Under the pieces are notes generated by a model. The model did no database searches. It saw only the letters and a program-made list of their open reading frames with translations, and was not told the DNA's origin. A stretch of DNA of 62,856 bases, counting the filler. It is 7 parts of 7 records of this genome, joined end to end, with 100 filler letters (N's around TTAATTAATTAA, not from the genome) between each part and the next. Parts side by side here need not be neighbours in the genome. Positions count along the whole stretch, not along the records: positions 1 to 28,164 come from SRR9188676_824; 6 more parts are not named here. The stretch is one strand, 5' to 3'. The first letter of the stretch is position 1. Each line of letters begins with the position of its first letter. This document shows, one piece after another, positions 103-23,200 of the stretch. The translations under genes and the position numbers were made by a program.

Positions 103-465
103 ATGGAAGCAAAGAAGCCAAAACAATCAGGACGACCTAGATTAGAAGATGCCTTGGAATGTGTTATTCCAGCGAGGTTCACCCAGACAGAATTTGAAGA
201 GATTAAACAAAAATCAAAAGGCTTAAAAATGTCAAGGTCAGCTTATATTCGTTCCATGACGCTCAAAGGGAAGGTTCAAAATTTGTTTACGGAAGAAGAA
301 CAAAAAGCCAAAAAACAATTGATAGGAATTGCCAATAATCTTAATCAACTCTTGAAGCTTTGTCATATTCATGGCATAGAGAAAATGATAAAACAAGTAA
401 ATCTACAGCTAGGAAATATTGATAAAATCTTAGATAAGTACAATCATGGTGGGAGTAGTGAGTGA
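103..465 (+). CDS. mobA: Relaxosome accessory ribbon-helix-helix protein (Bacteroidota MobA / plasmid MobC family)
   Basis: GRP N-terminus, RHH segment SRSAYIRSM and the LIGIANNLNQL motif; overlaps the relaxase start. ATG at 103 preferred over GTG at 34. Confidence 0.85.
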   Translation: MEAKKPKQSGRPRLEDALECVIPARFTQTEFEEIKQKSKGLKMSRSAYIRSMTLKGKVQNLFTEEEQKAKKQLIGIANNLNQLLKLCHIHGIEKMIKQVNLQLGNIDKILDKYNHGGSSE

Positions 466-1477
466 AAAGGGAAAATCATTTGAAGGTCTAATTAATTACT
501 TGTTTGAAGGAAGACTAAAAGATAGAGGAAGTGCTAATAAACGCCCTGAAATCGTGAGTCATGCAGAAAATGTGAGAATTCCTTTTGGAATAGAAGATAA
601 AGTAGGTCGAAACAGGCTTATCTCAGATTTAATCAATCAAGCTAAACTACATCGCAATTATGGTGATTATAGCACGAAGTATGTTGGAGAGCATATTTTA
701 TCTTTTACGGAAAAAGACGTTAAAAAATTAGGGAAAGACCAGATAAAAGAACTTTGCGAACAGTATGTAAAAGATGCTGGTTTAGATAAAACTCAATATG
801 TAGCCATCTCACATGCTGATACAGAGCATTATCATATTCATGTTATCTTTAATAGGTGCCAGAATGATAATACGCTGTATCCGGATTGGAAAGAAAAAGC
901 AAAAACAGCAGAGAGAGCTATAGCGCTTGCTTTAAAATATGATTTAGGTTTAACAGATAAGCAAGAGCACATGGCAGATAGTAAAGGGGTTTTGGAAATA
1001 AGGGCAAATCACGGAGATATTATAGATTTAGCCAAAAATCCAGTTCTCAATAGTATCAGAAATATAAAGCATTTAGAAAAAATCTGTGAAGCTCAATACA
1101 TTCCATTTTCACTAAAGAGAGACAAATTGAATGTCGGAAATAAGACCTTCAAGAAGCGAGATTTAGAGGCTGTGTTCTTTAGGAACCGTCAAATGAGCAA
1201 AGAAGAAAGAGACAATAAAAAAGCTAGTGAGTATTCATCTCAAAAAAGAAAAATTAAACAAAAACCAGCCTATACCCTCAAAAAAGAAAAGATTAAAAGA
1301 AAATCAGAAGAGCAGCAAAAGCAAGAAAAGAGTAATATTAACCTGAGCATTCTAGATGAACCATTACAAAGTATTCCTCAACCCTTAGAAGAAAATCTGG
1401 AGTTTAATTATAAAAAGGCATATAGTAAAAGTGATAAAGAAGAAAAAATGTACTATAAAAGAAGAAAAAGGCGTTAG
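446..1477 (+). CDS. mobB: MOBP-family relaxase
   Basis: N-terminal FEGLINY (catalytic Tyr), HILSF motif and the HADTEHYHIH HUH motif. Confidence 0.9.
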   Translation: MVGVVSEKGKSFEGLINYLFEGRLKDRGSANKRPEIVSHAENVRIPFGIEDKVGRNRLISDLINQAKLHRNYGDYSTKYVGEHILSFTEKDVKKLGKDQIKELCEQYVKDAGLDKTQYVAISHADTEHYHIHVIFNRCQNDNTLYPDWKEKAKTAERAIALALKYDLGLTDKQEHMADSKGVLEIRANHGDIIDLAKNPVLNSIRNIKHLEKICEAQYIPFSLKRDKLNVGNKTFKKRDLEAVFFRNRQMSKEERDNKKASEYSSQKRKIKQKPAYTLKKEKIKRKSEEQQKQEKSNINLSILDEPLQSIPQPLEENLEFNYKKAYSKSDKEEKMYYKRRKRR

Positions 1478-1534
1478 TATTTTGAAAAATAAGTATTTAG
1501 CTCTATAGTTCCCTTAATAATTTGAATACTTCCT

Positions 1535-3943
1535 ATGAATGAACAAACCAAAAATGCAGAGTTTATCAAAGTGATTGGCATTACACTTATTCCTGTACAC
1601 CTCTTTTTCTTTTACTATCCATTGATGCGTAAAAGCTTACACATTTCATGGCTAGATCCTATTTATTTGTCATTAAATGGAAGGCTTTCCATGGTAAATT
1701 CGTCGATACTGATGAACACTTTAGCTGTTTTTATGCTATTAGTATATGCCATTACAACGCCAATTGGAAAAGATAAAGAGCTTAAAAAATCACAAATAGT
1801 CAGGAATACTAGCTTTGGTTGTTTACTTATTCTAATGAGTGCTTTCTTGTTTTATGTATTGCCTTATAACCAGTGGGGATTTTACGTATACATAATAGGG
1901 TTGGGGATAGGATATTATTGCTACATGAGTAATATTGCTTTACTATTACAACTGGTTCAGCTCAATCAATCAGAGGAATTTAATGTTGAAAAGGAGACAT
2001 TTCCTCAGATGCTAGAAAAAGTAGAGACAGCGCATAGTATTAATATCCCATATCATTTTTACTACAAGCAAAAATGGCATAAGGGCTGGCTTAATTTTGT
2101 TAATCCCTTTCGAGCCATCTTAGTAGCAGGTTCTCCTGGTTCAGGAAAATCTTTTGGAACAATCAATTTAGCCATCCATCAATTAATTCACAAGGGCTAT
2201 TGTTTGTACGTTTATGATTTTAAAATACCAACCTTAGCACTAGAGGTGTTCAATGGACTTTGGCATTACAAAGAACTACTCAAACAAGAATACGGGAGCA
2301 TAGCCCATTGGGAGAAAAAGACAGGAAAGTTTTTTCCCAAGTATTATCAAATAGACCTTAAAAACCCTCTTAAATCCAACAGAATCAATCCCATAGGGTC
2401 AAACTTAATCCTAGAGGTGGTTGATGCTGCAGAAAGTGCCAAATTTATCATGCAAGGCTTAAGAGGAACAGAAGGTGGGGGAGATGGGAGTAGTAAATTC
2501 TTCGACCAATCAGCAGAAAACTTATTAACGGCTTGTATATACTTTTTAAAAAGAAAGTCTAATCAATATGGAAAGGAATTTTGTAGCCTTCCCCATGTAG
2601 TAGAACTGCTACAAAAGCCCTATGAAATACTCTTTCCACTTTTAATGTCCGATCCTTATGTCAGAAACCTCGCTTCGACTTTTAACAATGCTTTTGAAAA
2701 AGGCGTTTTTGAGCAGCTACAAGGGCAAGTAGATTCCTTAGTGATACCGATGGGACAATTAAGTGATCCCGGCATCTACTGGGCCTTTACAGGAGCAGAT
2801 TTTGATATTAATATTTCTAATCCTAAAAATCCCTCCATTTTAGTGATTGGAAACGACCCAGATAGAGAAGATACCTATGGAATATTACTTTCATTACTCA
2901 ATGGAAAGCTCACTAAAACCATCAACAAAAAGAATCAATTACCTTTAGCGGTTATTTTAGATGAATTACCCACCTTACCTTTTAATTCGGTGAGTAATCT
3001 AATAGCCACCGCACGTTCTAATAAAGTAGCCTGTATTTTAGGGATACAAGATACTTCACAGTTTGTATTAAGATACGGGCAAGAAAAAGCCAATATGATT
3101 ATTAATATGGTGGGTTCTATTTTGACAGGACAAATTCGAGGAGAATTAGCCAAGACTATTTCTGAATGTATCGGGAAAATCAATCAAGAACAGGTTTCAG
3201 AAAGTATTTCGGCTCAGGGAATTTCTTATAGTGTATCGACCCAGCTTAATGAGGCGGTAACCATTTCTACGATTGCCAATTTATCGCAAGGAGAGATGGT
3301 TGGAACCATTTCAGATGATTTTGTCGCACCACTTAAATACAAACGCTTTCACGGGAAAATAGATGCCTTAGCACACGAAGCATCACCCACGACAAAAATG
3401 CCCATCAAAGAAATCCCAGATTTGAATCCTGCTTTTCGTTTAATGAAAGGCGAAACAGAAAGCGATAGAGAAATGCGAGTAAAAATTATGGTGAGAGAAA
3501 ACTATGAAGCAATCAAAAAGGATTTAGTCCTCTTACAATATTTAGAGCTGATACGCTTTCAGTTTCAAAAGGAAGAAAGTCAAGATATTAATTTAGAAGT
3601 ACTGGCAGAAGGAATGCTGAATTATATCATGAAAGTGAATAAATACCTCACCAAGGAAGGCTTAAGTCCTCAAGGAGAAGTATTTATGGATAAATTAGAA
3701 ATCATGAATACCATCTTTCAGAACAATATTGCTAGTAAAATAGCCTTGTCAGAAACTGAAAGTCAGGATAGTTTAGTGGATGGAAAGATTGTGGCAGCTC
3801 CCAAGAAATTGTATGAAGAATATACCTCTGAAGAAGCCAAAACCTTACAAGCACATTACCGAGAGTTTTTTCAAGTGTATAGCAGTGCTTCTGTTCAAAA
3901 ACCGATGAATGATTATGAAAGTTATGATGGCGATGATTTTTAA
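1535..3943 (+). CDS. mobC: Type IV coupling protein (Bacteroidota MobC, VirD4/TraD-like)
   Basis: N-terminal TM segments, GWLNFVNPFRA, Walker A GSPGSGKS, Walker B ILDELPT and ATARSNKVA. Confidence 0.92.
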   Translation: MNEQTKNAEFIKVIGITLIPVHLFFFYYPLMRKSLHISWLDPIYLSLNGRLSMVNSSILMNTLAVFMLLVYAITTPIGKDKELKKSQIVRNTSFGCLLILMSAFLFYVLPYNQWGFYVYIIGLGIGYYCYMSNIALLLQLVQLNQSEEFNVEKETFPQMLEKVETAHSINIPYHFYYKQKWHKGWLNFVNPFRAILVAGSPGSGKSFGTINLAIHQLIHKGYCLYVYDFKIPTLALEVFNGLWHYKELLKQEYGSIAHWEKKTGKFFPKYYQIDLKNPLKSNRINPIGSNLILEVVDAAESAKFIMQGLRGTEGGGDGSSKFFDQSAENLLTACIYFLKRKSNQYGKEFCSLPHVVELLQKPYEILFPLLMSDPYVRNLASTFNNAFEKGVFEQLQGQVDSLVIPMGQLSDPGIYWAFTGADFDINISNPKNPSILVIGNDPDREDTYGILLSLLNGKLTKTINKKNQLPLAVILDELPTLPFNSVSNLIATARSNKVACILGIQDTSQFVLRYGQEKANMIINMVGSILTGQIRGELAKTISECIGKINQEQVSESISAQGISYSVSTQLNEAVTISTIANLSQGEMVGTISDDFVAPLKYKRFHGKIDALAHEASPTTKMPIKEIPDLNPAFRLMKGETESDREMRVKIMVRENYEAIKKDLVLLQYLELIRFQFQKEESQDINLEVLAEGMLNYIMKVNKYLTKEGLSPQGEVFMDKLEIMNTIFQNNIASKIALSETESQDSLVDGKIVAAPKKLYEEYTSEEAKTLQAHYREFFQVYSSASVQKPMNDYESYDGDDF

Positions 3944-7513: not shown

Positions 7514-7517
7514 CGGT

Positions 7518-9364: not shown

Positions 9365-9369
9365 CTTTT

Positions 9370-9933
9370 TTATTTATGATTTAGAAAATAGGAAAACAGT
9401 TTTGCCAAAAAATAGGAATTACTGATGATAAAAAGTACAGGTAAAGTACATGAATTCAACAGGAAATAAATTTCAAGAAACGTAAAATGAGTAGATACTT
9501 TCTCTTGTAAAAATTCTTCTTTTTGCTCATCTGAGGCATTCTTTGAGGGAATTTTGAAATATTTAAGATGAAGCTTTAGCAGTACAAATCTTAGTTGCTT
9601 ATAAAAACCAACAAAGGTCATTTTATGTCTGCTTAGCCATATCAATCCCTGAAGAAAAAAAGCGATTAAAAAGTAAAGTATTTGCCCAAAAAAGGGCTTT
9701 ATACCATACAATGTTTCAATATCATTCAAAAGTGTAATGGCATAGAAATATGGAAGTACATATAGTCCAGTATTCTTGTGAATCAATTGATTAATTTTTT
9801 GTACAAATGGCGAAGATGCAGTCTCCCCATGCCTGATGATTCCCTTTCTTTCCAAAAAGGCAATGAATGCTAAAAAGCATACGGTGGTCATAAGGTCTAT
9901 ATAAAATACTAGCATAGTGGAATTCCCCCTCAT
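9370..9933 (-). CDS. Hypothetical membrane protein in the tra operon
   Basis: About four hydrophobic segments; co-oriented and tightly spaced with tra genes. Confidence 0.6.
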   Translation of the reverse strand: MRGNSTMLVFYIDLMTTVCFLAFIAFLERKGIIRHGETASSPFVQKINQLIHKNTGLYVLPYFYAITLLNDIETLYGIKPFFGQILYFLIAFFLQGLIWLSRHKMTFVGFYKQLRFVLLKLHLKYFKIPSKNASDEQKEEFLQEKVSTHFTFLEIYFLLNSCTLPVLFIISNSYFLAKLFSYFLNHK

Positions 9934-9983: not shown

Positions 9984-10559
9984 CTATAGGGCATCAAAGA
10001 GTTTAAATTTTAGACCTACTTGTGCATTTGCTTTGATTTGCCGAGTAATCGCAGCGGTTGTTCCATCGGCATCAACTTTGGCGAAAACTGCTATTTTACG
10101 AGAGAAAAATTTCTCTACATTAAAGCCAATCGTCAAGAATGGATAAGCCTTACCTTGGCTAGCTCCATTAGCTGTTCCATTACTAAGTGATTGAAATCCA
10201 GCACCTAATCCATATAAAAATCCGAGAAATGAAAGATGATATTTTCCTTTCAGTAAAGTTGCTTCATAGCTATATTTTAGTTGATAGTTTTTAAGTAAAG
10301 CGGCAGTATTATCTTGCATTTTCTCTTGTCTATAAGCAAAACCAATTCGATGATAATTGGATGTAGCAGTACCAAAACATAAGGATGCGGCATAAAATCT
10401 ATCACCTTGTTGCCAGTTTTGTGGGAAATTGTTATCCTCAAAAAGTAAGGGTATTCCGCTTGAAACTTCAAGGTATTTTGTGCTTTTATTCCTGATTTGT
10501 GCCTGAGTGTCAGTTAAATATCCTGTTATCAAAATGGCTATCAAAAAGTATGTTTTCAT
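9984..10559 (-). CDS. traO: Conjugative transposon TraO (small outer-membrane beta-barrel)
   Basis: Signal peptide, alternating beta-strands, terminal VGLKF; directly follows traN. Confidence 0.7.
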   Translation of the reverse strand: MKTYFLIAILITGYLTDTQAQIRNKSTKYLEVSSGIPLLFEDNNFPQNWQQGDRFYAASLCFGTATSNYHRIGFAYRQEKMQDNTAALLKNYQLKYSYEATLLKGKYHLSFLGFLYGLGAGFQSLSNGTANGASQGKAYPFLTIGFNVEKFFSRKIAVFAKVDADGTTAAITRQIKANAQVGLKFKLFDAL

Positions 10560-11512
10560 AATTTTTTCATCTGATAGTAAAAGGTTTCATAATCAATTTT
10601 AAGGTTCATATTACGGCTACCGTCTTTCTCTACGATGTCAATTTCAAAGTTTTTGTCTTTACCAATTGAAAACTTAGGCATCATAAACACAAAGTTGAAA
10701 TAAGCACCAGCGTCTCCTAGTTTTCGTCCATCTGGAGCACCCTCTTGTTCGAGGTAAACGAAATTGGGATTAAGTTCAATTTCTTGTGAAACTTCCTTTT
10801 TGCGCTTTGTTTTATCACGTACATAGAATTTCATGTACTCCAAGCCATAATCTAAGGGCGAGCTATTTTTCATGCTAATACATACAATAATCTTCCCTTC
10901 CTTAGTAGCCAACTGTATGAGTTTGAACTGTACTTTTCCGACTTTATCAGCAATGTGTTGAATAGTATGCCTAGTTTTTGATAGCTCAATCATCTTTTTA
11001 GAGAAATGAATCATCTCCGTTTCCGTATAATAAGTATCGCTAAAGACTATTTTCTCTGGTCTATCGCTAACCTGTTTCTCAAAAGCATCATTTAAACCTG
11101 CTGCCATGGTAATATTGAGTTTGTTGGGAGATTCGTTATAGGAAACCAGAAAACTATAATACTTTCCATCATGCGTAATGACGGTAACATTGGTTTCAAA
11201 AATGCCTATTTGAGCTGCTTTAAGCTTTAATACATTATCGACACCTTCCACTCTATCGCAAATAATTCGGTTAGAACCAGCATCAAAATATTTAATAGGG
11301 GCATCAAATACAATATGAGTAGTCTTATAAAAAGCGACACTCACAGGATAACTCCCTTTGATGTTATGCTCTTTGAAGGTTAAGACCTTCTTCTGATTGG
11401 CGGAAGAAATAAGACCCGTAGAATCAGTTTTAATCAGGTTCAATGTCTGTGCTTCCATCAAGAGTGAAAACAGCGTCAAACAGCAAGAGAGTAGATATTT
11501 CAGATTTTTCAT
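10556..11512 (-). CDS. traN: Conjugative transposon TraN (VirB9-like, DUF4138)
   Basis: KTTHIVFDAPIKYFDAGS, NVLKLKA, ETNVTVITHDG, QEIEL and EKDGSRN motifs. Confidence 0.9.
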   Translation of the reverse strand: MKNLKYLLSCCLTLFSLLMEAQTLNLIKTDSTGLISSANQKKVLTFKEHNIKGSYPVSVAFYKTTHIVFDAPIKYFDAGSNRIICDRVEGVDNVLKLKAAQIGIFETNVTVITHDGKYYSFLVSYNESPNKLNITMAAGLNDAFEKQVSDRPEKIVFSDTYYTETEMIHFSKKMIELSKTRHTIQHIADKVGKVQFKLIQLATKEGKIIVCISMKNSSPLDYGLEYMKFYVRDKTKRKKEVSQEIELNPNFVYLEQEGAPDGRKLGDAGAYFNFVFMMPKFSIGKDKNFEIDIVEKDGSRNMNLKIDYETFYYQMKKL

Positions 11513-11515
11513 AGA

Positions 11516-12682
11516 TTAGTTTTTGATTAAGAGGAAGAGTTGTTGTCCAGTTTTAATGCTGACTTTTACATCTCTAATTTTTGCATTAACATATTGATTA
11601 GCACCATTGAGGGACTGATTGACTAAAGAACCCACCACCTGATTGCCGACGGTTTGGGCAAGACTTCCTTGGGGATTATAAACCAATAGCGGATTCATAG
11701 CACCTAGCGTACTTCCTACATTTTGTCCCCAAGCATTCTTTTGCATTTCGTTTTCAGCATCAATGCTTACTTTCAAGCCTAACAAGCCATCCAGATCCAT
11801 CACCTGAGCGTTGAGGGCTTGATAAACATCATTTTTGATATAACCCTCTACAGAAAGTAATAGTCTATCTCCCTGAATATGGCTTTTAGCACCAATAATA
11901 TCGCCCGCTTGATAGCGTAGATTATCCAAGGATTTACTTTCGGTCAACATAATTTTGACTGTTGTATTATTACGCACTGTTTTAGATTCTAATAATTTTC
12001 CTTTGATTAAAATATGTTGTTTACTCTTTCCTAAGTTGCTACTGGGATCAATGCCAATGGTTGGCATATCTTCTTTCATTTGATGATTAGCATAAAAGCG
12101 ATTATTGACAGGTGATAAAAATGGATTATCCCATGCTGTGGATTGATCATTTTTAGCTTTTAAATCATCATCACTAAAGCTAAATCCATCGTTTTTAGAT
12201 TTTTCGGAGTCTTTATTAGCTCTAAGAGGAGTAGTCACATTGTTTTTAGGTTTATTGACCGTTTCTAATACTTTGATTCTTTCCTCCAATCGCTTAATGC
12301 TTTGAAGGTTTTTATCCTGATAAGAAGACCTATTTTCATTTGAATAAACCTTCTTCTTTTTCTCCAGTATTTTAGAAGAATCAACGTGAGTTTTTCCTAA
12401 ATACTCAGGATTGTTCTCCCATGAATTGGGTGAATTTTGTACTGGTTCGCTAGCCCAAAAACGCTCATTCTCTATTTCCTTTTTTTGATTAAAAGGCGTT
12501 TTTTCTTCAATCTTTTTATCAGCCGCAGGAATGTCAAAATTGATGGCTGAAAATTCATTTTCATGCGTTTGGGCAGCTCCATCTTTTTGAGGAATGATGT
12601 ACAAGTAAAATCCTACGAGAATCATATTGATGATCAGCGAAATAGGATATTTAAGAAAGCTTAAGTTAAAATACTTTTCCAT
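11516..12682 (-). CDS. traM: Conjugative transposon TraM (VirB10-like)
   Basis: N-terminal TM anchor, disordered linker, and C-terminal GDRLLL, MDLDGLLGL and KVSIKTG motifs. Confidence 0.85.
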   Translation of the reverse strand: MEKYFNLSFLKYPISLIINMILVGFYLYIIPQKDGAAQTHENEFSAINFDIPAADKKIEEKTPFNQKKEIENERFWASEPVQNSPNSWENNPEYLGKTHVDSSKILEKKKKVYSNENRSSYQDKNLQSIKRLEERIKVLETVNKPKNNVTTPLRANKDSEKSKNDGFSFSDDDLKAKNDQSTAWDNPFLSPVNNRFYANHQMKEDMPTIGIDPSSNLGKSKQHILIKGKLLESKTVRNNTTVKIMLTESKSLDNLRYQAGDIIGAKSHIQGDRLLLSVEGYIKNDVYQALNAQVMDLDGLLGLKVSIDAENEMQKNAWGQNVGSTLGAMNPLLVYNPQGSLAQTVGNQVVGSLVNQSLNGANQYVNAKIRDVKVSIKTGQQLFLLIKN

Positions 12683-12742: not shown

Positions 12743-13399
12743 CTAAGGATTGCTTGGATTAATGACTATATCTTTTGTCCCCCGACTATTGATTTCCTTA
12801 TTGCCAATGACCTTCATTTTATTGAGAAAAAAGCCATAAAGATTATTATCCGTTCTATCTCTTTCTTCCATCGAAAATTCAGTCACTAGAAAACTCTCTT
12901 TGGTAACGCCCCCTTGTCCTCTGAGTAATACTTTTCCGTAAAACCGCCCCATAGAGCCTCTAAAGACAATACTATCGACCTTAATGTACTGAATGGCATT
13001 GCGTTGAACGATGTTATTATAATAGTTTTGGCTGTTGTAAAATTCGTACAATGGAATAAAGTCAGCATAGTAAAAACTCTTTTGAATATTACTATGGATT
13101 TGCTGTTCATCTGGTTCGAGTCGAAAGAAAAGCTCATGGGCTTTAGCTACCATCGCCTTTTTTGCTACTAATTCAAAGCCATCATTATAAACATCATATA
13201 CTTTACGAATCTCTCCATTTTTATCCATGATGTAAGGTTTAGGCTTTTGAGAAGTAACAGCATCTTTATACAAAACCATTGAAGTAATAATCAAGATGAG
13301 AGCAAAACCCAACACGCCAAAAACTAGGTACTTTCCCGTATGGTTAATGCGATCAATATCTCTGAGATACTTGATTTCAAAGCTTTTTTCTTTACTCAT
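12743..13399 (-). CDS. traK: Conjugative transposon TraK (VirB8-like)
   Basis: Single TM, HELFFRLEPD, YYNNIV, IKVDSI and RTDNNLYGF motifs. Confidence 0.85.
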   Translation of the reverse strand: MSKEKSFEIKYLRDIDRINHTGKYLVFGVLGFALILIITSMVLYKDAVTSQKPKPYIMDKNGEIRKVYDVYNDGFELVAKKAMVAKAHELFFRLEPDEQQIHSNIQKSFYYADFIPLYEFYNSQNYYNNIVQRNAIQYIKVDSIVFRGSMGRFYGKVLLRGQGGVTKESFLVTEFSMEERDRTDNNLYGFFLNKMKVIGNKEINSRGTKDIVINPSNP

Positions 13400-16010
13400 A
13401 TTCATAGGAAATCATGCGAGGATTATGGCTGATTTTAGAATTATAATTGAATTTTTCATCACAGAATCTGATAACTGCTTGAGGTGAGCCATTGAACATC
13501 ATCATTAATTCAGCGAGGTAATTAATCGTTAATTCAAAATTTCGGTTGAACTCTCTCAAATAAAGAAATTTGACTAAATTCTTCTCAGGTGCTTCAGTAG
13601 TATATGCCCAGTATTCTTTATGAGATAATAAAATGCCATAGACACCATACACCTCATTTGTCCAAAGAATCAATAATTCTCTGAACCTATCATCTGCTTT
13701 TAAATCACGATTAAGACTTAACAACATGGCAACGTGTTTATCTTCCAAAGAAAGTACCTGAGCGATTTTATCAATCTTCTTCATATACTTAGCCATAGAA
13801 AGAATGAACTTAATGTCTGACTGAGTAACGACTGTTTCTTTGATAATAGGAGAGGAGATAATGTCATCTAATTCCTGCGTTACCAAACCAATGGTTCCTT
13901 TAAACTTCCTGGCAGTTTTATAAACCTCTTTGATGTACTCTGCAAACATATCCGACATGATAGCCTTCCAGGCTTCCTCAATAATGAGATATTTTCTTTG
14001 GTTAAGCTTTTCCTTGAGAATCTCCTCATAAGTACCCATCATGTAAATGACGACGAGCGGGAAAAGTACTTTATTCCCTTTGATATTATCTAATTCAAAG
14101 ACAATAAAACGCTCATTTTTAAGGTCAATTTGATAAGAAGCATTTAATACTTCTGCATAAATACCACCCACATGAAAAATCTTTAATACATCTAAAAAAT
14201 GATTGATGTCAAAAAGCTTAGAAGTGTTCAAATGCGGTAAATCCTTATGTCTAAAAACACTCGCCATGTATTCATAATAGCTATTGAAACAAAGCGGAAT
14301 CATTTCGTTTTCCTCTCTTTTCTTTGTTGCTACATAATTGTAATAATAGCTAATGGATTGTAACACAATGTTTTCATCTAGTTTACTAGGCAAGTCATCT
14401 CCTTTCCAAGCTTTGAGAAGCAATTTTAGCATCATATCCAAACGCCGTTCGGAAGGCATTTCAGTATCAATCACAAAAGGGTTAATTTGAATGGGGACTT
14501 CGTCACCAAAAGAAAAATAAGAACCTTTGAGATAGTTTTTACAAAGGTTTTCATAACTATGTCCTACATCAACAAGCATTACAAATGCTCCACTTTCTAC
14601 AGCCCAGCGGACTAAATAATTCATGCTTACGGATTTTCCTGAACCCGTTGGTCCTAAGCAAAAGAAATTATACCCTGTAATGGCTTTTCGCTGTCTCGAA
14701 TTGCCACTTTCCGCAAATACATCAACAATTACTCTTGCCCCATTGCGATTGACAAGTGGTAATCCCAAGGCTGACTTACCATCGAAGGCAAATGTTTCTT
14801 CAAAGTTTAAAAAAGATGAACCCACCGCATCATAGGTCAAAATCATTTGGTCAGCACCGATGTTACCAGCATTGCCCGGCATGGTATTCATAAAGACAAT
14901 GGGTAATTCTTCATTACATTCAAAAGGAATTAAATCAACTTTTTTGAATCCATCATTGATTTGAGACTTGAGTACTTTTAAATCTTCATAACTATCAGCA
15001 TGCCAGAAAACTAGATTGGCATAAAAGCGAATAGGAGATAAGCGTCCAGATCCATCAATCAAATTTTGAAGAAAGAGTTTGGTATCCTGTAAAGAGTGTT
15101 CATTTTCCTCTGAAAAAGAAAGAATCCCACTTTTTTGCTTGATAAGGCTTTGCAGAGATGACTTAACATTTTCAAGACTTTCTTTATAAATCACCACATT
15201 GTAAATACACTCTCCGTCTATTTTATGCGTAAAAGATTTACACAAGGCAGCAGGGAAAAAACTAATTTCAGTGGAAAGGTTTTTATCCCCCGTAAAACTT
15301 GAAATGGTATCGTTGATGGATAAGATGGAATCAATTTGATAGATTCCACAGTATTTATCACCCACTTTCAAGCAGTTTTTATCAGGCAGGTAAATAACAT
15401 CCTTGATCGCATCTTGAGTATCTTGGGTGAGCATCATGTATTTTTCACAGAGATTAAGATGGCTTTTAGTGCCTAATAAATCTTTCTCATCCACCAAATG
15501 AAAAGAAAAATCCATGCCTTGTGCTAATGTTCTAAGAAAAATCTCAATACTGCTGGTAAATTTCTCAATAGACTCTTTTTGTATGTTCTTCTTATCTACT
15601 TTGATAAGCGAACTAAAAATACCATTGGTAGAGAGTGTTTTCTTAGTAGGAGGAGTATTAACCAAAGTAAAGAATAGATAACTTTTGGTTTGTTTAAACC
15701 TTTTTTCAAAAAGTAAACGTTCGTTAGCTCCTCCAAGATAAGTTTCTGAAGAAGCCTGTAAGTTAATATCACCCTCAGTATAATCGTTAAAACAAAAAAA
15801 GGTCTGCGCATGTAAAAGCGTATGAGCAGGAAGGCTCGAAAACGCATTTTTAAAATTGAGGTTAACTTGCTGATAGCTATCAGCCGATAAAGTATTTAGG
15901 TTAGCAAAAACACCTTCATAACATAAGGTTATATCACCATTTCGACTGAGTAAAGCCCCAAAATCAGTCGCACCAATGATGGGAAAGCTTTCTTTGTTAT
16001 TAATAATCAT
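13392..16010 (-). CDS. traG: Conjugative transposon TraG ATPase (VirB4-like)
   Basis: Walker A GPTGSGKS, LVDVGHSY, FELDNIK, IIEEAWKA and ARKFKG. ATG at 16010 chosen over TTG at 16067. Confidence 0.93.
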   Translation of the reverse strand: MIINNKESFPIIGATDFGALLSRNGDITLCYEGVFANLNTLSADSYQQVNLNFKNAFSSLPAHTLLHAQTFFCFNDYTEGDINLQASSETYLGGANERLLFEKRFKQTKSYLFFTLVNTPPTKKTLSTNGIFSSLIKVDKKNIQKESIEKFTSSIEIFLRTLAQGMDFSFHLVDEKDLLGTKSHLNLCEKYMMLTQDTQDAIKDVIYLPDKNCLKVGDKYCGIYQIDSILSINDTISSFTGDKNLSTEISFFPAALCKSFTHKIDGECIYNVVIYKESLENVKSSLQSLIKQKSGILSFSEENEHSLQDTKLFLQNLIDGSGRLSPIRFYANLVFWHADSYEDLKVLKSQINDGFKKVDLIPFECNEELPIVFMNTMPGNAGNIGADQMILTYDAVGSSFLNFEETFAFDGKSALGLPLVNRNGARVIVDVFAESGNSRQRKAITGYNFFCLGPTGSGKSVSMNYLVRWAVESGAFVMLVDVGHSYENLCKNYLKGSYFSFGDEVPIQINPFVIDTEMPSERRLDMMLKLLLKAWKGDDLPSKLDENIVLQSISYYYNYVATKKREENEMIPLCFNSYYEYMASVFRHKDLPHLNTSKLFDINHFLDVLKIFHVGGIYAEVLNASYQIDLKNERFIVFELDNIKGNKVLFPLVVIYMMGTYEEILKEKLNQRKYLIIEEAWKAIMSDMFAEYIKEVYKTARKFKGTIGLVTQELDDIISSPIIKETVVTQSDIKFILSMAKYMKKIDKIAQVLSLEDKHVAMLLSLNRDLKADDRFRELLILWTNEVYGVYGILLSHKEYWAYTTEAPEKNLVKFLYLREFNRNFELTINYLAELMMMFNGSPQAVIRFCDEKFNYNSKISHNPRMISYEYE

Positions 16011-16068
16011 AGAATAGATAATTAGGTTTAGCGGTGAAACAAACTTAGAAACCAATACCTTTTTCAAG

Positions 16069-16104
16069 TAAGTACAAGAATAAGCACAAGAGTAAATACA
16101 AGGA
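16069..16104. repeat. Three 12-bp tandem direct repeats between traF and traG
   Basis: TAAGTACAAGAA / TAAGCACAAGAG / TAAATACAAGGA. Confidence 0.7.
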
Positions 16105-16110
16105 CTGTGT

Positions 16111-16431
16111 TTAAAACAATCTTATCTTGGTCATAGTAGGTCTTCCACCTGCTATTTTATGAACCCGAAAAAAATACTTTACCAACATCTTTTCATAACC
16201 GAAAGGACCAATTTTTCTAAGGAAGACGAAAGAGAAAAAGCCAACACAAGCAACCGTAATGATTGAAAATAAAGAACCAATCAATAAATGCCCAATTTTA
16301 ATAGCAATGATTAAACATACTAACATGGTTACTAGTAAGATAACAGCCCAAACAATGATTAAAGACATTGGAAAGCCTTTAAAATAAGGCGGTTGATTCA
16401 CGCCTTTGTGGGTGTAATATTGGGTAATCAT
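16111..16431 (-). CDS. traF: TraF (DUF4133, VirB3-like)
   Basis: YxTHKGVNQPPYFKG N-terminus, two TMs, KIGPFG. Confidence 0.8.
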   Translation of the reverse strand: MITQYYTHKGVNQPPYFKGFPMSLIIVWAVILLVTMLVCLIIAIKIGHLLIGSLFSIITVACVGFFSFVFLRKIGPFGYEKMLVKYFFRVHKIAGGRPTMTKIRLF

Positions 16432-16434
16432 TTG

Positions 16435-16761
16435 CTAGAAAAATAAGATTTTAGAAAGCCCAACACCTATGAGGATGACCAATGAACCCATCAAAACACC
16501 CTGAAGGTTTTTAAAGGCTTGCTGATCGCCTTGTTTATACTTAAATCCAGCAGAGGTAATACCTATGAGGAAAACCACACCCGAGATTGCCATGAGTAGT
16601 GTGGTTACACCATCAATAATACTTCTGATTTCTGTAGCCCCAGATTCAGAGGCGGAAGCCACTTTAGTCCCCCAATTAGATTGGGCTTGGATATAGCATC
16701 CATACAGAGAGAAGAGAGTAGTCAGCAGTAAATGCTTAACTTTTTGCTTGTTTGATTGCAT
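16435..16761 (-). CDS. traE: TraE (DUF4134, VirB2 pilin-like)
   Basis: Signal peptide, LLMAISGVVFLIG, KYKQGDQ and C-terminal FF. Confidence 0.8.
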   Translation of the reverse strand: MQSNKQKVKHLLLTTLFSLYGCYIQAQSNWGTKVASASESGATEIRSIIDGVTTLLMAISGVVFLIGITSAGFKYKQGDQQAFKNLQGVLMGSLVILIGVGLSKILFF

Positions 16762-16815: not shown

Positions 16816-17043
16816 TCACTGATTAATCATTGCATCGAACTCCACCTTTTCGGCTTGAATTTGGGTACGAGTATCTAATGATTTACCTAAAGAAGAAGGA
16901 TTGTCAAACATAGATTCTTTGCTATGCTGACCACTGATAAAGTAATCATAGAAGAAGAAAACAGTCCAAGTACAGAGGGTTAAAGTTCCTACCCCTATTC
17001 CATATACGTTCCAGTTAAATAATAAAATTGAAGAATGATTCAT
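16816..17043 (-). CDS. Small membrane-anchored protein, first gene of the tra operon
   Basis: 75 aa with one TM ending FYD; co-oriented with traE. Confidence 0.5.
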   Translation of the reverse strand: MNHSSILLFNWNVYGIGVGTLTLCTWTVFFFYDYFISGQHSKESMFDNPSSLGKSLDTRTQIQAEKVEFDAMINQ

Positions 17044-17050: not shown

Positions 17051-17091
17051 TAATTTTGGATTGACTATTTATATATCATATATCAAATATA
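17051..17091. promoter_or_regulatory. Face-to-face Bacteroidota -7 promoter elements
   Basis: TAATTTTG on + at 17051-17058 (towards the tnpA-like gene) and TATATTTG on - at 17091-17084 (towards tra). Both fit TAnnTTTG. Confidence 0.45.
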
Positions 17092-17128
17092 ATAAAAAAA
17101 TAGATAAGTATATATTAAACTAATAAAA

Positions 17129-17512
17129 ATGAAAGAAAATATTTTACAGTATTGTATTATCTTTTGCACTAAGTATAAAAAAACACTTTTGACTGAAGAG
17201 CTTCATGCAGATTTTTTGAATCTTACATATCGTTATTGTTATGAAAACTCCATAGCATTGTTGTCATTAGACATTAGAGATAAACATACGGTTATCCTTG
17301 AAATAAGTACAGAGATAGCGATGGAGTCTCCTCATGTAATCATTACCAATTTAAAGGCATACTTGGCGGGAGAATTAAAAAAGAATTATCCGCAGCTTAA
17401 ATCAAAAACCCCAAGCCTTTGGACAAGGCAACATTTTATTCAAACGATAGGAGTAAGGAATGATGAATTAATGGAAGCTTTTGTATTCAATCAGAAAGGA
17501 TTAAAAGATTAG
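17129..17512 (+). CDS. IS200/IS605-family Y1 transposase homolog with substituted catalytic residues
   Basis: YCIIFCTKYK, LKA...LKKNYPQLK and SLWTR...TIG match TnpA. HUH reads H53-T-V and the catalytic YxxxQ reads F118xxxQ122. Confidence 0.8.
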   Translation: MKENILQYCIIFCTKYKKTLLTEELHADFLNLTYRYCYENSIALLSLDIRDKHTVILEISTEIAMESPHVIITNLKAYLAGELKKNYPQLKSKTPSLWTRQHFIQTIGVRNDELMEAFVFNQKGLKD

Positions 17513-17641
17513 CTTAGCGTTTTAAGATTAAATTTAAATTATAATATAATCTTTTTGTTAGTTTGGTGGTAGTGTATTGAATAAATTAAACAAATTGTGT
17601 AATTTTACCAATATAACCACAATTCAATACATATTACTTTT

Positions 17642-18553
17642 ATGCAGATGGATTTATTGTCAGGTCTCAAAGAGCGATTCTTTGTGAGTGCTGAACAAAT
17701 TGAAAAGATTAAGTTAAATACTATTCATGATAGTATCCTTCATACAACTCCTTCTGAGAAACCAAGTTTGATTATTGTGGGTGGGCAATCAGGGAGTAAG
17801 AAGGAAGAGTTAATTTTTATGGCTACAGAAGAGCTTGCTGGAAATACCATGCTATTGTCAGCTGATATTTTACGTAACTATCATCCTAATGTTACTGAGA
17901 TTAAGCAAGAATATCCTGATATGTTGCTGCCTCTAACAGCAGATTTTACCAAAGAACTTTTGCTCCATATTGAGGACTATGCCATTCAAAACCATTACAA
18001 TGTTGTATTGGAAGCAAGTTTAGGTAATGCAGAAAAAGCAGTTCAACGATTAAGTAAATACAAAGAGCAGGCTTATTTGATAGCCTTGAAAGTACTATCC
18101 ATCAATAAAATGTTTAGTTATTTGAATGCAGAAGAAGAATATGAAAATCGGTTACTAACAGAAAAAAGCGGAAGGCTAGTATCTAAACAGTATCACGATC
18201 AGCTATGTAATAAGATTCCTCAGACACTTCAAACGTTATATGAACAGCAATTACTGGATAAAATAAGTATTTACCAACTTCATACTTTTGAAGAAAATAG
18301 GGTATTAAAATCCAAGCCAACCATCTTGGAAGAAAAGAAGGAGAAGGCTTTAGAAGCTTATTTGAATGAACAAAACAGAGATTTTACTTCGACAGAATTA
18401 GCTTATTTAAAAGAGAAAGCTCAAAAGGTAAAAGCTATGAAAGTAAACAGAGAAGCTAACTTTTTAGAAAAAGTACGTTTCGATTTCAACTTCAAGTTTA
18501 TTTTAGAAGGTAAGGAAGGAAAAACTAAAAGTAAGAAGATGACGGCAGTGTGA
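17642..18553 (+). CDS. Zeta-toxin (PezT)-family P-loop protein with degenerate Walker A
   Basis: GGQSGSKKE (canonical GGQPGxGKT), ADILRNYHPN, NVVLE and GRLVSKQYHD. Confidence 0.8.
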   Translation: MQMDLLSGLKERFFVSAEQIEKIKLNTIHDSILHTTPSEKPSLIIVGGQSGSKKEELIFMATEELAGNTMLLSADILRNYHPNVTEIKQEYPDMLLPLTADFTKELLLHIEDYAIQNHYNVVLEASLGNAEKAVQRLSKYKEQAYLIALKVLSINKMFSYLNAEEEYENRLLTEKSGRLVSKQYHDQLCNKIPQTLQTLYEQQLLDKISIYQLHTFEENRVLKSKPTILEEKKEKALEAYLNEQNRDFTSTELAYLKEKAQKVKAMKVNREANFLEKVRFDFNFKFILEGKEGKTKSKKMTAV

Positions 18554-18617: not shown

Positions 18618-19883
18618 CTAAACTGTCATAAATGCTCTGCTAATCATTTCCTGTTCGTTTCTACTTATTTTATATTTTGTAGCTATTGTTTTCCATTCAG
18701 CCACAACTCCCTTAATCTCTTCAATAATTTGCTTGGCACGTTCTTGTTTTAGCCTAAAAAATATAGCGACTTCCAATGCAAGATTTGTATCCAAAGCATT
18801 ATCATTTTCTGAAATGTTTAATTTTAATCCAGTGCCGGTTTCAATGGGATTTATATCAAAAGCAGGGGAGAGTTCCCAACCTTTGTTTGTCAATAAAAAT
18901 CCATGATTTCTAAGATGGTCATCTGTATTAGAGACACAAATATTAAAGACAATTCTTCTCCAAAGCTGTTCTAAATCACCCTCAACGTTTGAGCCATTTC
19001 GCATGATAAATTCGGCTAAATGTAAGTAACTTACCCCATCTTGAAAATCTGTTCCATCGGTATGTCCTAGTAGTGTCATAGCAGAGGCAAAATGAATCCT
19101 TTTATTATTAACTCTATCAAAACGTTTTGTCAAAAAAGTATGATGATGACCACTAAACTTTTGAATCATTGCTTCAGACATTTGAATACCCGATTTTTGA
19201 GCTAATTCATAAATAACCATTTCCCATGCAGCAGTATCTCGATTATCAAAGTTACTTGGGAATTTTGCAATCCATAAATGGTTATTGGTATCCACAATAC
19301 TTGCTTTGGGTCTTGCACCTCCTAAAGATGAACCAGGAGCAATGAGCATATTTAACCACTTTAAATAGTCAGGATTATCTACACTGTCATCTTTTTCAAG
19401 TAGAAGACTAGCTTGCTCTAATTCTCTTAAAGAGGTAAAAGGTGGAGCCGCCATTGCTTTATTATCATTTAAAAATGGCCCCTCAATAGATTCCTTAAAT
19501 CGTATTGCCCCCATTCTATGTTGGTCATAGACACCCAAAAGATAATCTGTTTCAAAAAGTAATTGTTCTCTGCGTCCCTCAAATCGTGCTATAGCGGCTT
19601 CACGCCTACGCATGAGTAACCGTCCCCATCTGTCGGGAGAAGAATCCATAAAAATTCCAAAATTACTTTTAGTATCATTTAGGTATTGCTTCCCACTATA
19701 TAATGCTAAATCAGGATCAAGTGAAAAGAGATATTCATTAACTTTCAACCACTGTTTATCATATTCAAAAGCAAATATTTCTTTTCCTCTGATTTGCGTT
19801 GCAGATAATTCACCCATTAATTGAGGTATTTCTGAGCTTTCCCAATCTGTAAATACAGTGATATGTCGTTTTTTTTCTGCCAT
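18618..19883 (-). CDS. hipA: HipA-family toxin kinase
   Basis: DSSPDRWGR, GSSLGGARPKA, IAKFP, RFDR, NTDDHLRNHGF and LSPAFD. Start at MAEKK. Confidence 0.93.
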   Translation of the reverse strand: MAEKKRHITVFTDWESSEIPQLMGELSATQIRGKEIFAFEYDKQWLKVNEYLFSLDPDLALYSGKQYLNDTKSNFGIFMDSSPDRWGRLLMRRREAAIARFEGRREQLLFETDYLLGVYDQHRMGAIRFKESIEGPFLNDNKAMAAPPFTSLRELEQASLLLEKDDSVDNPDYLKWLNMLIAPGSSLGGARPKASIVDTNNHLWIAKFPSNFDNRDTAAWEMVIYELAQKSGIQMSEAMIQKFSGHHHTFLTKRFDRVNNKRIHFASAMTLLGHTDGTDFQDGVSYLHLAEFIMRNGSNVEGDLEQLWRRIVFNICVSNTDDHLRNHGFLLTNKGWELSPAFDINPIETGTGLKLNISENDNALDTNLALEVAIFFRLKQERAKQIIEEIKGVVAEWKTIATKYKISRNEQEMISRAFMTV

Positions 19884-19887
19884 TATC

Positions 19888-20211
19888 TTATGCCTCTTTA
19901 GGTTTTCTGCTTGCCCGTTTTTTGACCAATAAATCAGCATCTTGTAATTTTCTACCTAAAGTATCATCATTGGCTAGGTTTAGAAAGTTTCTTTCTAAGC
20001 CCAATACAAATAATACTTGAACGTATGCTCCCATCGCAACACTTGGTGTACCTTTTTCAATTAACCATAGTGTGGTACGACTAATATCCGCACGTTCTGC
20101 AACTTGTTCAGCGCTTAGTTTTCTTCTTAGTCGAGCCAGTCTAATATCTTCTCCTAATTGAGCTAATATTTTAGCAGCAGTCGGTAATAATATAGTTGCT
20201 TTAGTATTCAT
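19888..20211 (-). CDS. hipB: XRE-family HTH antitoxin (HipB-like)
   Basis: LGEDIRLARLRRKLSAEQVAERADISRTTL HTH; immediately upstream of hipA. Confidence 0.85.
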   Translation of the reverse strand: MNTKATILLPTAAKILAQLGEDIRLARLRRKLSAEQVAERADISRTTLWLIEKGTPSVAMGAYVQVLFVLGLERNFLNLANDDTLGRKLQDADLLVKKRASRKPKEA

Positions 20212-20270
20212 AATGTTTGATATTATGAACAAATATACAATTAATGTTTATAATATCAAACATTATGAAT
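20206..20270 (-). promoter_or_regulatory. hipBA promoter enclosed by a 26-bp inverted-repeat operator
   Basis: Arms 20206-20231 and 20245-20270 differ by one base. The minus strand reads TTTG (20260-20257)-N19-TATATTTG (20237-20230), a canonical Bacteroidota -33/-7 promoter. Confidence 0.75.
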
Positions 20271-20283: not shown

Positions 20284-23200
20284 TCAAATTTTAACTCTCA
20301 TCCCTTTCTTTTCCATCTCATTAACCTGCTCTTCAGCATTGCTTGATGGAGTAATATTGATGGACTTTTCCTTCTTTTCAATGGTTTGATCAATTTTTTC
20401 TTTTAGGGAGTCAAGTTCTTTTTTGACTTTGATCAGCTCATTTTCTCCTTTAAAGTCCTCTTGGATAAACTTTCTTAAATCATTGATGTTCTTGTTAATG
20501 TTTTCAATGTTCTGTTGAACGCTTTCTAATAATACAGGAATTTTGAGGAGTGCTCTTTGAGGATATTGTACAGCAATGTCTGGCGTACTGGCAAGATAAC
20601 CGCCATTGAAAGCATACTTTTCATTACTCTGTCCCTGCAAGATTAAGATATTCTCTAAACTTACTCTGTTATCAAAGTCCCTTATCTTAGTCGCCTCAAA
20701 ATACATTTTAAATCCTGCATAAGTGCCTACTTCCGTAATACCTTCTTGAGCAATGCTATCTCTTAATTTAACAAGATATGTGCCTAGTCCTTTTTCAGTC
20801 CTTATATCAAGTTCCTTTTTATCAAAAAGTGAATCTGAATGACGAGTAATAAAACTTTCTAAGCTTTGTGAATTAACCAGGTATTTGTCAAGATTAATTT
20901 TTTCTGACTTAAAATCTACTTGTTGGTCTAAAAGGAACTTTTGATCTTTCAGCAATGCTTCTTTTTTTATTTCATTTAGCCGTAAGGAAGTTTCCAAACC
21001 CTCTATCTTTTCTTCAGCCAATCGTTGATCTTTCAAAAACATAAACTTTTCAGATTCAACCTTTCCAAGCTCACGTTCTAATTTTGCTTTATCAAGAAGC
21101 ATGGTATTTCCAGAAAGAATGGCGCAGTACTCGGCATAATTCATACCATTGGCTTCGTCCATACCGCCTTCATCAATTTTTCGTACACCTAGCTGATTCG
21201 ATTTAATCTGATTGATAAAAATACTCTTGTTAAGCAGAAGATTGAATTTATAGGAATCTAGCGTCTGTTCAACGGCATAGACAAAATTATGTACTTCATT
21301 GTTATTAAACTTCATGGCATATTCGTTACCTTGCCTAGCACCTCGACCAATGCGCTGTTCAAATTCAGAAGGTTTCCATGGAATATCCAGGTGATGCATG
21401 GCAATCATACGACGCTGAGCATTTACGCCAGTACCTAAAGTACTTGTTGAGCCAATCAAAACTCTCACTTCACCATTATTCATTTTTTCAAAGAGTTTTT
21501 CTCGTTGTTTATCCGTTTTGAAAGATTGAATAAATGCAATTTCCTCTGGCTTTAAGCCTTTTTCTATCAACTTATCCTTAATAGCAAAATAAACATTGAA
21601 GCCAGTACTTTTAGAAGAAGGAGTACTTAAATCACAGAAAATCATTTGAGTCGCTTTAAAGTGATTACCTTCCTGATAGTAATCTAATACTTTATGACAG
21701 CATTGATTGATTTTATTATTGACATCATCGTTAAAACTAGGATGAATCAAACGCATATCCAATGCCATTTTCTTACTCTCATTGGTGGCAATTAGCATCT
21801 TCGCCTTTTCTTCACTTTCACTTAAAGGATTACGATAGATTAAGGTACCATCACCAGTATTAGCAAAATCTTGTAAACGCAAAGAAAAGTCTTGTTGCTC
21901 TTTGGTTTGTGGTAAAACCACTAATTCTGTTTTAGCTTTGGCTGGAAAGATGCCAACCATATCACTTGTTTTATAGTCTGTAATTTGACTATAGAAAATA
22001 GCTAATTCAGGTACTTTGATGTATTCTCTAAAACGTTCTTTCTGAATGATATTATTGGTGATGGAGATTTCGTACTCGGTTGATTTAACCCCATAAGTAG
22101 CAATCCAAGAATCGAAATTAAAAATCTGTTGTTTCTTTAATTCTTTGGGTCGAAGGTATTTAAATAACAAATACAGTTCATTCAAAGAATTCGAAATGGG
22201 CGTTCCAGACAGAAAAGTAACCCCTAAATCTCTCCCTTTTTTCTCTTGTAAAGTTCGTAGCGCAACCAACATATTTAAAGCTCTATCACTTCCTTCCATA
22301 CTTCCTAGTCCAGCCACATTATTATGACGAGTACTGTAAGTAAGGTTTTTATAAATATGCGATTCATCGACAAAAATATGATCAATCCCCATAGAATCGA
22401 AGTTGAGCACATCATCACGATGTTCTTTAATCGCTTCCATTTTGGTCTTAAGCTTACTTTCTAAATTAGCTTGACGTTTCAGTAAGCCTTTGTATTGTTG
22501 TTTGGTCTCATACGTTTGAGACATCGAATTCATCACCTTCAAATCCTTGTTCAGGTTATTCAATTCATCTCCAAGAACAGCCGAAAAGGCTTCATGAGAA
22601 TGAGGTATTTTGCTAAACTGCTCATGGGTAAGAATAACGCAGTCCCAATTATTATTCTTGATTTGATTGAAGATATTCTCCCGATTCTTTTTACTAAAAT
22701 CAACATCACCACTGTAAAGTAAACTAGCATTAGGATAAGCCTTTTTATAGGTTTCAGCAATCTGAGCAATGTTCGCTTTCAAGCAAAGAATCAAAGGTTT
22801 ATTAGCCACGCCTAAGCGTTTCATTTCATGGCTTGTTACAATCATCGTCAATGATTTACCTAAACCCACTTGATGGTCAACAATTCCACCATCTTGCTGA
22901 ATCAAAGCCCAAGCGGCATCTTTCTGGGATTTATACAAATCAGGAATACCTAAATTCTGTAAGTTTAATTGAGGGAAAGTTAAATGTCCACCATCGTATT
23001 GAGGTTTTACGTAGCAGTTAAACTTCTGATTATAAGTTTTGGCTAAATCGTTCTTAAAATCAATGTCTTGTTCATTCAAAAAGGCGATGAATTTGTTTCT
23101 AATATCTTCAATCTTGTTATTGACTAAGATGGTTTTATCTTTATCAGTTACATAAATATTTTTACCTCTGTCAACATCATAGCCAATTAACTTTTCCATT

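Follow-up and report, generated by a model that had tools for sequence, protein, structure and literature searches.

The stretch of DNA analyzed here, called the window (62,856 nucleotides, filler included, in seven joined parts of one genome's records; positions 1 to 28,164 are from SRR9188676_824), carries a Bacteroidota-type conjugative element. Back to back with its transfer (tra) operon is a gene for a 127-residue homologue of the IS200-type (Y1) transposase TnpA, which we refer to as dead TnpA. The gene is not part of an insertion sequence (IS); it is a single-copy accessory gene of one lineage of integrative and conjugative elements (ICEs) from the freshwater bacterium Arcicella. The protein has the TnpA fold, has lost the second His of its HUH motif and the hydroxyl of its catalytic Tyr, and is under strong purifying selection, and the gene has a fixed synteny and is restricted to these elements. 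Dead TnpA was probably recruited for a new job. Our tentative reading, to which we give not quite an even chance, is that it is a domesticated, non-cleaving TnpA of subclass 1.1-like type that acts as an ICE accessory factor, binding a ligand that it leaves uncut. The gene is as follows:

17129..17512, + strand: catalytically disabled IS200-type TnpA homologue, 127 aa, ATG start (Y1_Tnp match, IS608 alignment, AlphaFold2, Foldseek)

Profile searches placed the protein in the TnpA family. It matched Pfam Y1_Tnp (PF01797) with an E-value of 7.5e-14 and 52.3 bits (cut-off 23), residues 6-122 aligning with positions 5-121 of the 121-position profile. The match to the NCBIfam IS200/IS605 transposase model NF033573 was barely above the cut-off (55.4 vs 55 bits), and automatic annotation will tend to count dead TnpA as an insertion sequence. 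Solved structures in the PDB were matched at 4e-6, and IS608 TnpA (2a6m/2vhg) served as the reference for alignment. In this alignment the N-terminal ‘kYHivwC’ of IS608 corresponds to ‘qYCiifC’ (YH to YC), and the HUH segment ‘dHiHil’ corresponds to ‘kHtVil’, with the first His kept and the second replaced by Val (H53-T54-V55). In the C-terminal helix, ‘kqYienQ’ corresponds to ‘eaFvfnQ’, so that F118 occupies the position of Tyr127 and Q122 is retained. The alignment bore out the preliminary description of the gene, which had reported a full-length TnpA frame with YC, H-T-V and FxxxQ. As IS608 TnpA is inactivated by mutation of H64, H66 or Y127 (PMC3597680), the canonical HUH/Tyr chemistry has been lost in dead TnpA.

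An AlphaFold2 model based on the family alignment (pLDDT 81.7, pTM 0.77) had the strand and helix order of TnpA. Foldseek searches with this model identified the ISDra2, IS608 and Sulfolobus TnpA structures with a probability of 1.00, with ISDra2 and IS608 at the top, and gave a TM score of 0.84 for 2fyx. The basic KYKK, KK and K..K..R patches of active TnpAs are retained in dead TnpA. Another Foldseek match, PDB 2xo6, is by its entry title the Y132F mutant of ISDra2 TnpA crystallized in complex with its DNA end, which indicates that loss of the Tyr hydroxyl need not abolish DNA binding.

There was no tnpB among the scanned neighbors of the gene, and no hairpins of the kind found at IS ends were detected in its flanks: the 85 nt upstream folded no better than shuffled sequences (z +1.3 and +0.55), and the 129 nt downstream folded weakly, with nothing significant (z -1.5 and -1.8). 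No flanking repeats comparable to the REPs of RAYT genes were found. Genome G001 has one copy, and G117 has two, one per ICE copy and with the same neighbors. The single copy per element, the same flank in all loci and the lack of tnpB and end hairpins together indicated that the gene is not an IS; neighbor scans and flank folding thus agree with the earlier statement that tnpB and obvious IS ends are missing.

Conservation, selection and distribution

Relatives of dead TnpA were collected by a word-indexed search of 5.8 billion proteins, which gave 22 sequences of 57-98% identity and, with the query, an alignment of 23. Both F118 and Q122 are invariant in 23/23 members. Position 55 is Val in 21 members, Ile in one and Met in one, and His in 0/23; H53 is retained in 20/23, being replaced by Asn in two and Gln in one. 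Across family members down to 57% identity, 33 alignment columns are invariant. Conservation specific to the family peaks in residues 28-40, the helix A block, where D28, L30, N31, Y34, C37, Y38, E39 and N40 are invariant (23/23) and which aligns with IS608 residues that share no such motif. A fourth lineage (L015/L016, 49.6% identical) has F-I-V at the HUH positions and keeps the Phe, with the protein stopping just past it.

Selection was estimated by pairwise Nei-Gojobori counts against the window gene. There were 14 synonymous and 2 non-synonymous differences to locus L005 (omega 0.030) and 16 and 2 to L006 (omega 0.026), and omega was 0.125 against L030 and about 0.28 against L028/L029, with dS near saturation in the last comparison. 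TraG had an omega of 0.035-0.052 in the same loci and the zeta-like neighbor 0.12-0.22. The reading frame of dead TnpA is intact in all nine genome places, with flagged stops lying at or beyond the ends of the open reading frames (ORFs). By these counts the gene is under strong purifying selection, with an omega as low as that of the TraG ATPase in the closest comparisons. The preliminary description had named active closest homologues and a neutrally decaying singleton as the outcome that would speak against it; what was found is 22 Phe-bearing relatives and an omega of about 0.03.

The dS of the dead TnpA gene against L005/L006 (0.22-0.25) was lower than that of traF (0.32-0.51), zeta (0.40-0.42) and traE (0.52-0.79), which could be due to recombination or to extra constraint at the nucleotide level.

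The family proved to be narrowly distributed. A HMMER search of 1.84 billion representative proteins gave E-values of 1e-30 or less for only two proteins, both family members, and 1.5e-15 for the next. All seven loci of dead TnpA on genome contigs are from Arcicella. When 401 genomes of the same bacterial family (25 Arcicella and 376 others) were searched with the family profile, 15 had matches at E <= 1e-5. Family-level matches (E 2e-47 to 1e-72) occurred in 8 of the 25 Arcicella genomes and in no other genus. Seven of the 376 non-Arcicella genomes matched, all at E >= 1.8e-18 and none at family level, and the seven full-length ORFs from them have the Tyr (7/7) and mostly HxH (6/7). Matches in the plasmid collection (256 records) were all below 60% identity, with 30-32% among the 25 matches listed, as were those in the phage collection (22 records), with 22-33% among the matches listed. 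Viral contigs held no relative, metagenome contigs had a single near-identical locus, and Protein Atlas matches were to generic Y1_Tnp clusters only. On the evidence of these searches, dead TnpA is a narrow, distinct clade restricted to Arcicella elements.

The conjugative element and its synteny

The element in the window has TraE/TraF/TraG/TraM/TraN-type genes, a relaxase and a coupling protein. Its features, and those flanking the dead TnpA gene, are as follows:

446..3943: relaxase and coupling protein (T4SS-DNA_transf), profile matches
13392..16067, - strand: TraG ATPase (P-loop), profile match
16111..16431, - strand: traF-like gene, weak DUF4133 profile match
16435..16761, - strand: traE-like gene, DUF4134 profile match
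16816..17043, - strand: orf75, 75 aa, one hydrophobic segment, no family match; heads the tra operon
17051..17058, + strand: TAATTTTG, putative -7 box of the dead TnpA gene promoter, pattern match only
17084..17091, - strand: TATATTTG, putative -7 box of the orf75-tra operon promoter, pattern match only
17573-17582 and 17622-17631: 10-bp inverted repeat, TGTATTGAAT and ATTCAATACA, exact, 39 nt between arms
17642..18553, + strand: zeta-toxin-like gene, 303 aa, profile match, 129 nt after dead TnpA

The tra operon (traE/F/G part 13392..16761, - strand) continues with TraM (Transposon_TraM) and DUF4138 (TraN-like) genes. The dead TnpA gene is divergent from orf75 across an 85-nt spacer, back to back with the orf75-traE-traF-traG promoter. 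Downstream of dead TnpA is a hot spot for cargo, the first gene of which is the zeta-like one. The divergent arrangement had been described before, but the first gene on the opposite strand is orf75 and not traE. The consensus of the Bacteroidota -7 promoter box is TAnnTTTG, and the two putative boxes in the spacer are interleaved face to face. Alignment showed the + strand box at the same place in all four lineages, as TAATTTTG or TAAATTTG, and the - strand box in four lineages as TATATTTG, TAGTTTTG or TAGCTTTG. As the motif is not enriched in the window (64 found vs 77.7 expected), the argument for these boxes is based on their position and conservation.

The divergent pair of orf75 and dead TnpA was present in every locus, and a zeta-like gene was found 0.1-3.7 kb downstream of dead TnpA in every locus of all four lineages. 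In the window-type loci (L002-L006), in L007 and in L028 the tra operon lies next to this pair; in L029 (G157) and L030 (G206) it does not. TraG of this lineage is absent from G157 (best match 29% identical) and from G206 (81% complete, no match). In L030 (G206:C30), a Tn3-family transposase (6788-9448) abuts orf75 at the place where the tra operon would be expected, and an AbiEi/AbiEii pair (10233-11833) lies between dead TnpA and zeta; this locus looks like an ICE remnant that kept orf75, dead TnpA, zeta and the methyltransferase-helicase gene. The clade with Y-to-F change and HUH loss under purifying selection (dN/dS 0.03-0.13), for which the preliminary description had proposed a search, does exist, but its linkage to tra genes is not universal (L029, L030 and the sister ICE L061).

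The flank downstream of dead TnpA differs between loci immediately past the stop codon, and the interval up to zeta is a hot spot for cargo whose contents differ by locus. In L006 it has a 3.7-kb insertion with a secreted esterase gene and two small ORFs on the opposite strand, and in L029 one opposite-strand ORF. In L028 (G188:C31, 8612-9809) it has a second zeta operon, convergent to dead TnpA and upstream of the degenerate zeta; this second zeta has a canonical P-loop (GAQPGAGKT), and a 96-aa ORF overlaps its start.

The sister ICE L061 (G188), whose TraG is 65% identical to that of the window, has a 39%-identical orf75 homologue at the head of traE-F-G. Neither dead TnpA nor a zeta gene was found in the 11.5 kb upstream, and the divergent slot is occupied by a 220-aa ORF whose match to HTH_19 is weak and does not reach the cut-off (E 0.0017). 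That orf75 and the tra genes occur there without dead TnpA indicates that orf75 belongs to the tra operon and that dead TnpA is accessory. Identities to the window for TraG and dead TnpA, respectively, were 86% (partial match) vs 66%, 80% vs 50%, and 65% vs absent. By these comparisons the divergence of dead TnpA tracks that of TraG, and it is an accessory gene of one ICE sub-lineage.

The preliminary description had also drawn attention to an interrupted inverted repeat downstream of the gene. The repeat is present as an exact copy, but it is at chance level, poorly conserved and tied to the zeta leader. A perfect 10-bp inverted repeat within 120 nt occurred in 29% of 1000 shuffles of a 941-nt region and in 9.6% of 2000 shuffles of the 129-nt gap. 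The right arm has one mismatch in L003-L005 and three in L006; L007, L030, L028 and L029 lack the repeat. The arms bracket a near-consensus -7 box, TAATTTTA (17600-17607), which is the perfect TAATTTTG in L007. In L006 the leader of roughly 95 nt that carries the repeat remains with the zeta gene, beyond the 3.7-kb insertion, and the repeat therefore belongs, if to anything, to the zeta leader.

PADLOC gave no match for dead TnpA, orf75 or the zeta-like gene. Two contigs of 151 nt in the freshwater metatranscriptome X11 are identical to 17075-17225 and 17497-17647, and coverage in RNA run X15 is limited to the 3' portion of the zeta gene; the libraries possibly contained DNA, and these contigs are not counted as proof of transcription. 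Neither an integrase nor the ends of the element were recognized in the window, and Rfam and tRNA scans of it found no RNA family and no tRNA. Downstream of the zeta gene are a hipB-hipA pair (18618-20232; HTH_31 and HipA_C) and a gene for a 1721-aa fusion of an Eco57I-like methyltransferase with SNF2/Helicase_C (20284-25449), which is 66-100% identical in other ICE loci. The region 25900-33600 is poor in ORFs of at least 90 aa, its G+C content climbs from 0.35 to 0.42, and the genes after it are unremarkable ones for glycoside hydrolases and esterases; the ICE may have its right-hand end there.

Possible roles of dead TnpA

We favor a non-cleaving binding role because the Tyr to Phe change removes only the nucleophile, the Gln is invariant, the basic patches remain, and the equivalent ISDra2 mutant was crystallized on its DNA end (2xo6). 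In such a role the C-terminal helix, with its invariant Phe and Gln, would still dock, and dead TnpA would bind its ligand without cutting it. The likeliest ligand would be structured single-stranded nucleic acid that the element produces: the strand being transferred, or the divergent promoter region when melted. By binding it, dead TnpA would help the ICE in its transfer, establishment or control.

Several observations weigh against this proposal. Dead TnpA persists in L029 and L030, which have no tra genes, and in L005 (G133:C32) it is intact (98.4% identity) next to a traG that is split in two. These loci show that a purely tra-directed role is not needed for its retention, although the losses of tra functions in L029, L030 and L005 may be recent. 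Conversely, the sister ICE L061 has a tra operon and no dead TnpA. There is no conserved hairpin or inverted repeat within the 85-nt intergenic region. Over the longer range, dN against L028 was 0.43 for dead TnpA and 0.14 for TraG, as would be expected of an accessory gene. The family core has a median pI of 6.1 and a net charge of -2 (range -6 to +3), compared with medians of 9.3 for pI and +5 for net charge in 52 active relatives, and this loss of net positive charge argues against strong nucleic-acid binding. Of the co-option suggested in the preliminary description, domestication without chemistry stands, and the narrower idea of a regulator of conjugation is weakened by the tra-less loci, the sister ICE and the loss of charge.

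In L005, the 220-aa gene that follows traG is likewise split in two pieces, the two split genes occupying 2299-4946.

A role with a protein partner fits equally well with the invariant surface of helix A and with the dN values of orf75 and dead TnpA, which are almost equal (0.277 and 0.276 in L007, 0.326 and 0.302 in L030, 0.419 and 0.429 in L028). Dead TnpA could then be an adaptor whose TnpA scaffold binds an ICE protein (orf75, the relaxosome, the coupling protein or the type IV secretion system) via helix A, a block for which IS608 has no counterpart motif. The lost net charge and the constant pairing with orf75 would also fit. However, a set of three dN pairs is small, and two genes under like constraint would show the same agreement; orf75 occurs without dead TnpA in the sister ICE, and the basic patches have been retained. 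We consider an adaptor for one of these candidate partners unlikely, if the best of the alternatives to nucleic-acid binding.

A less probable function is suggested by the zeta-like gene. Dead TnpA and zeta occur together in all four lineages, including the two tra-less loci, and both are missing from L061, which raised the idea that dead TnpA is an antitoxin-like neutralizer or regulator of the zeta-like protein in a maintenance module. Distant zeta homologues are rare: of 401 genomes searched in the order, 5 matched, G001 being one. In the zeta loci of other genera an ORF of 101-135 aa abuts or overlaps the start of the toxin gene (4/4), the usual arrangement of an antitoxin. No homologue of these ORFs was detected in the Arcicella loci (best tblastn E 0.08), and dead TnpA is similar to them in size and is not basic. 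Nevertheless, dead TnpA and zeta appear to be separate units, with a 129-nt gap between them and a zeta leader of roughly 95 nt with its own -7-like box, and genes intervene in L006, L030, L029 and L028, some on the opposite strand. The linked zeta proteins also have a degenerate Walker A motif: GGQSGSKKE in the window, GGQEGSFKA and AGQVGSFKE elsewhere, compared with GGQPGSGK[ST] in relatives. The Asp of the D-x-L-R motif is catalytic in zeta toxins, and it is not retained in the zeta of L007 and L030. Judging from these motifs, the linked proteins, which are still under purifying selection, may not be toxic kinases at all and may be pseudo-kinases needing no antitoxin. A complex prediction for the two proteins, made without alignments, scored 0.00, which speaks neither for nor against binding. 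We regard an antitoxin role as improbable.

We speculate, and hold it no more probable than the antitoxin role, that dead TnpA and the degenerate-P-loop zeta-like protein constitute an ICE module of two pseudoenzymes, of which neither cuts DNA nor phosphorylates its usual substrate. Their joint target would be the incoming single strand, or a factor of the host or of a rival element, which they would bind to aid establishment or persistence. The case would belong to a wider class, not yet described, of TnpA-derived binding proteins with Tyr changed to Phe that occur in metagenomes.

The dominant-negative IS200 inhibitor of the preliminary description fared worse, having no obvious target. The active sites of TnpA are formed in trans by two monomers (PMC3597680), and dead TnpA might pair with resident Y1 transposases into inactive heterodimers, or compete with them for hairpins, and in this way shield the single strand of the element from IS insertion. 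Other genes matching PF01797 are indeed present in 24/25 Arcicella genomes. However, the four sampled (L062-L065; G001:C12, G001:C34, G188:C31 and G066:C6) encode proteins of about 150-160 aa, one of them cut short, with intact DH[IV]H, WQ and YI.NQEEHH motifs (4/4), the motif set of subclass 1.2 in Table 1 of PMC6006769. They are not matched by the family profile, and heterodimers are unlikely at a similarity this low. The family profile found no classical IS200-type TnpA in the 25 Arcicella genomes, with the sampled residents falling below the threshold of E 1e-5. We consider inhibition of this kind very unlikely. The notion that Arcicella has no Y1 transposases to inhibit was itself rejected, given the PF01797 genes in 24/25 genomes.

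That dead TnpA is a neutral relic of an IS200 insertion which has not yet decayed is hardly credible: the family is narrow (one genus) and TnpA-Y1 proteins without the motifs were deemed probably non-functional by Quentin et al. 2018 (PMC6006769), but the frames are intact in 9/9 genome places, omega is 0.03-0.13, 33 columns are invariant, the promoter box is conserved and the position of the Tyr is always Phe.

Wider pattern and comparison with known systems

To our knowledge, Y1 transposases are either active IS enzymes or active domesticated RAYTs. In keeping with the preliminary description, whose author knew of no described example, full-text literature searches, which did not extend to the supplementary files of Quentin et al. 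2018, turned up no conjugative element with a conserved IS200-type TnpA that is catalytically inactive. The family survey of Quentin et al. 2018 deemed TnpA-Y1 proteins lacking the core motifs probably non-functional and set them aside, removing 202 of 924 (PMC6006769). A TnpA that has lost its chemistry yet is selected as strongly as a core ATPase of conjugation would be something new. If our reading of dead TnpA as a non-cleaving binding protein is true, the hairpin-binding scaffold of TnpA can be reused as a non-catalytic module, in this case by a mobile element whose own workings depend on single-stranded DNA.

Dead TnpA may not be an isolated case. We classified 148 non-family proteins among the best profile-search matches by their HUH motif and Tyr position: 54 had no HUH and a Phe, 33 no HUH and a Tyr, 54 both HUH and Tyr, and 7 were other combinations. 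The profile carries Phe and no HUH and so favors such proteins, and the class shares are not population estimates. A residue other than Tyr was present at the catalytic position in 61 of the 148, and it was Phe in 57/61. A quick tree of 137 rows (the query, 5/22 family members and 131/148 others of 110-180 aa, catalytic columns included) placed the Arcicella family (SH-aLRT 99) in a weakly supported cluster of 39-44 rows without a member having HUH and Tyr; many forks of this tree were unresolved. Ten of the Tyr to Phe relatives were looked up, and all were in tiny unnamed metagenome clusters. A profile of the metagenomic Tyr to Phe relatives found, in 401 Bacteroidota genomes and besides the Arcicella family, active proteins only (HxH and Tyr in 18/18 full-length ORFs). 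The predominance of Phe (57/61) hints that pseudo-transposases are common and overlooked.

Among known systems, dead TnpA is closest to the TnpAs of IS200/IS605 elements (PF01797; IS608, ISDra2; subclass 1.1), with which it shares its length, the beta-alpha-beta-beta-alpha-beta-alpha core and the KY[KR][KR], PxLWT and x3-Q motifs, at about 21-33% identity to solved or annotated members. It differs from them in having Val for the second HUH His and Phe for the catalytic Tyr, and from active TnpAs in its lost net positive charge and its new invariant helix A motif. Unlike these elements, its gene has no subterminal hairpins and no tnpB, and is present as a single copy at a fixed place in the ICE.

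RAYTs (TnpA-REP) resemble dead TnpA in being Y1 relatives kept under selection as single-copy, non-IS genes. They are chromosomal host genes that are flanked by REPs and have kept HUH and Tyr (PMC8266576; PMC6006769), whereas dead TnpA has lost its chemistry, has no flanking repeats and is carried by a mobile element. The RAYT structure 4er8 also matched the dead TnpA model far more weakly than IS200-type TnpAs did (Foldseek E 7.7e-4, TM 0.61).

The epsilon/PezA antitoxins are, like dead TnpA, small proteins that are not basic and whose genes precede a zeta-family gene on the same strand. Dead TnpA has a different fold, is a separate transcription unit and in several loci has genes inserted between it and zeta, and the zeta linked to it has, unlike the usual epsilon/PezA partners, a degenerate P-loop.

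Similar in their pattern of change are the metagenomic TnpA-like proteins with Tyr replaced by Phe (54/148), which have likewise kept the Gln and lost HUH, and which are less than about 35% identical to dead TnpA. Against this background, dead TnpA is best described as a non-catalytic variant of Y1 TnpA that a lineage of Arcicella ICEs has retained as an accessory gene.

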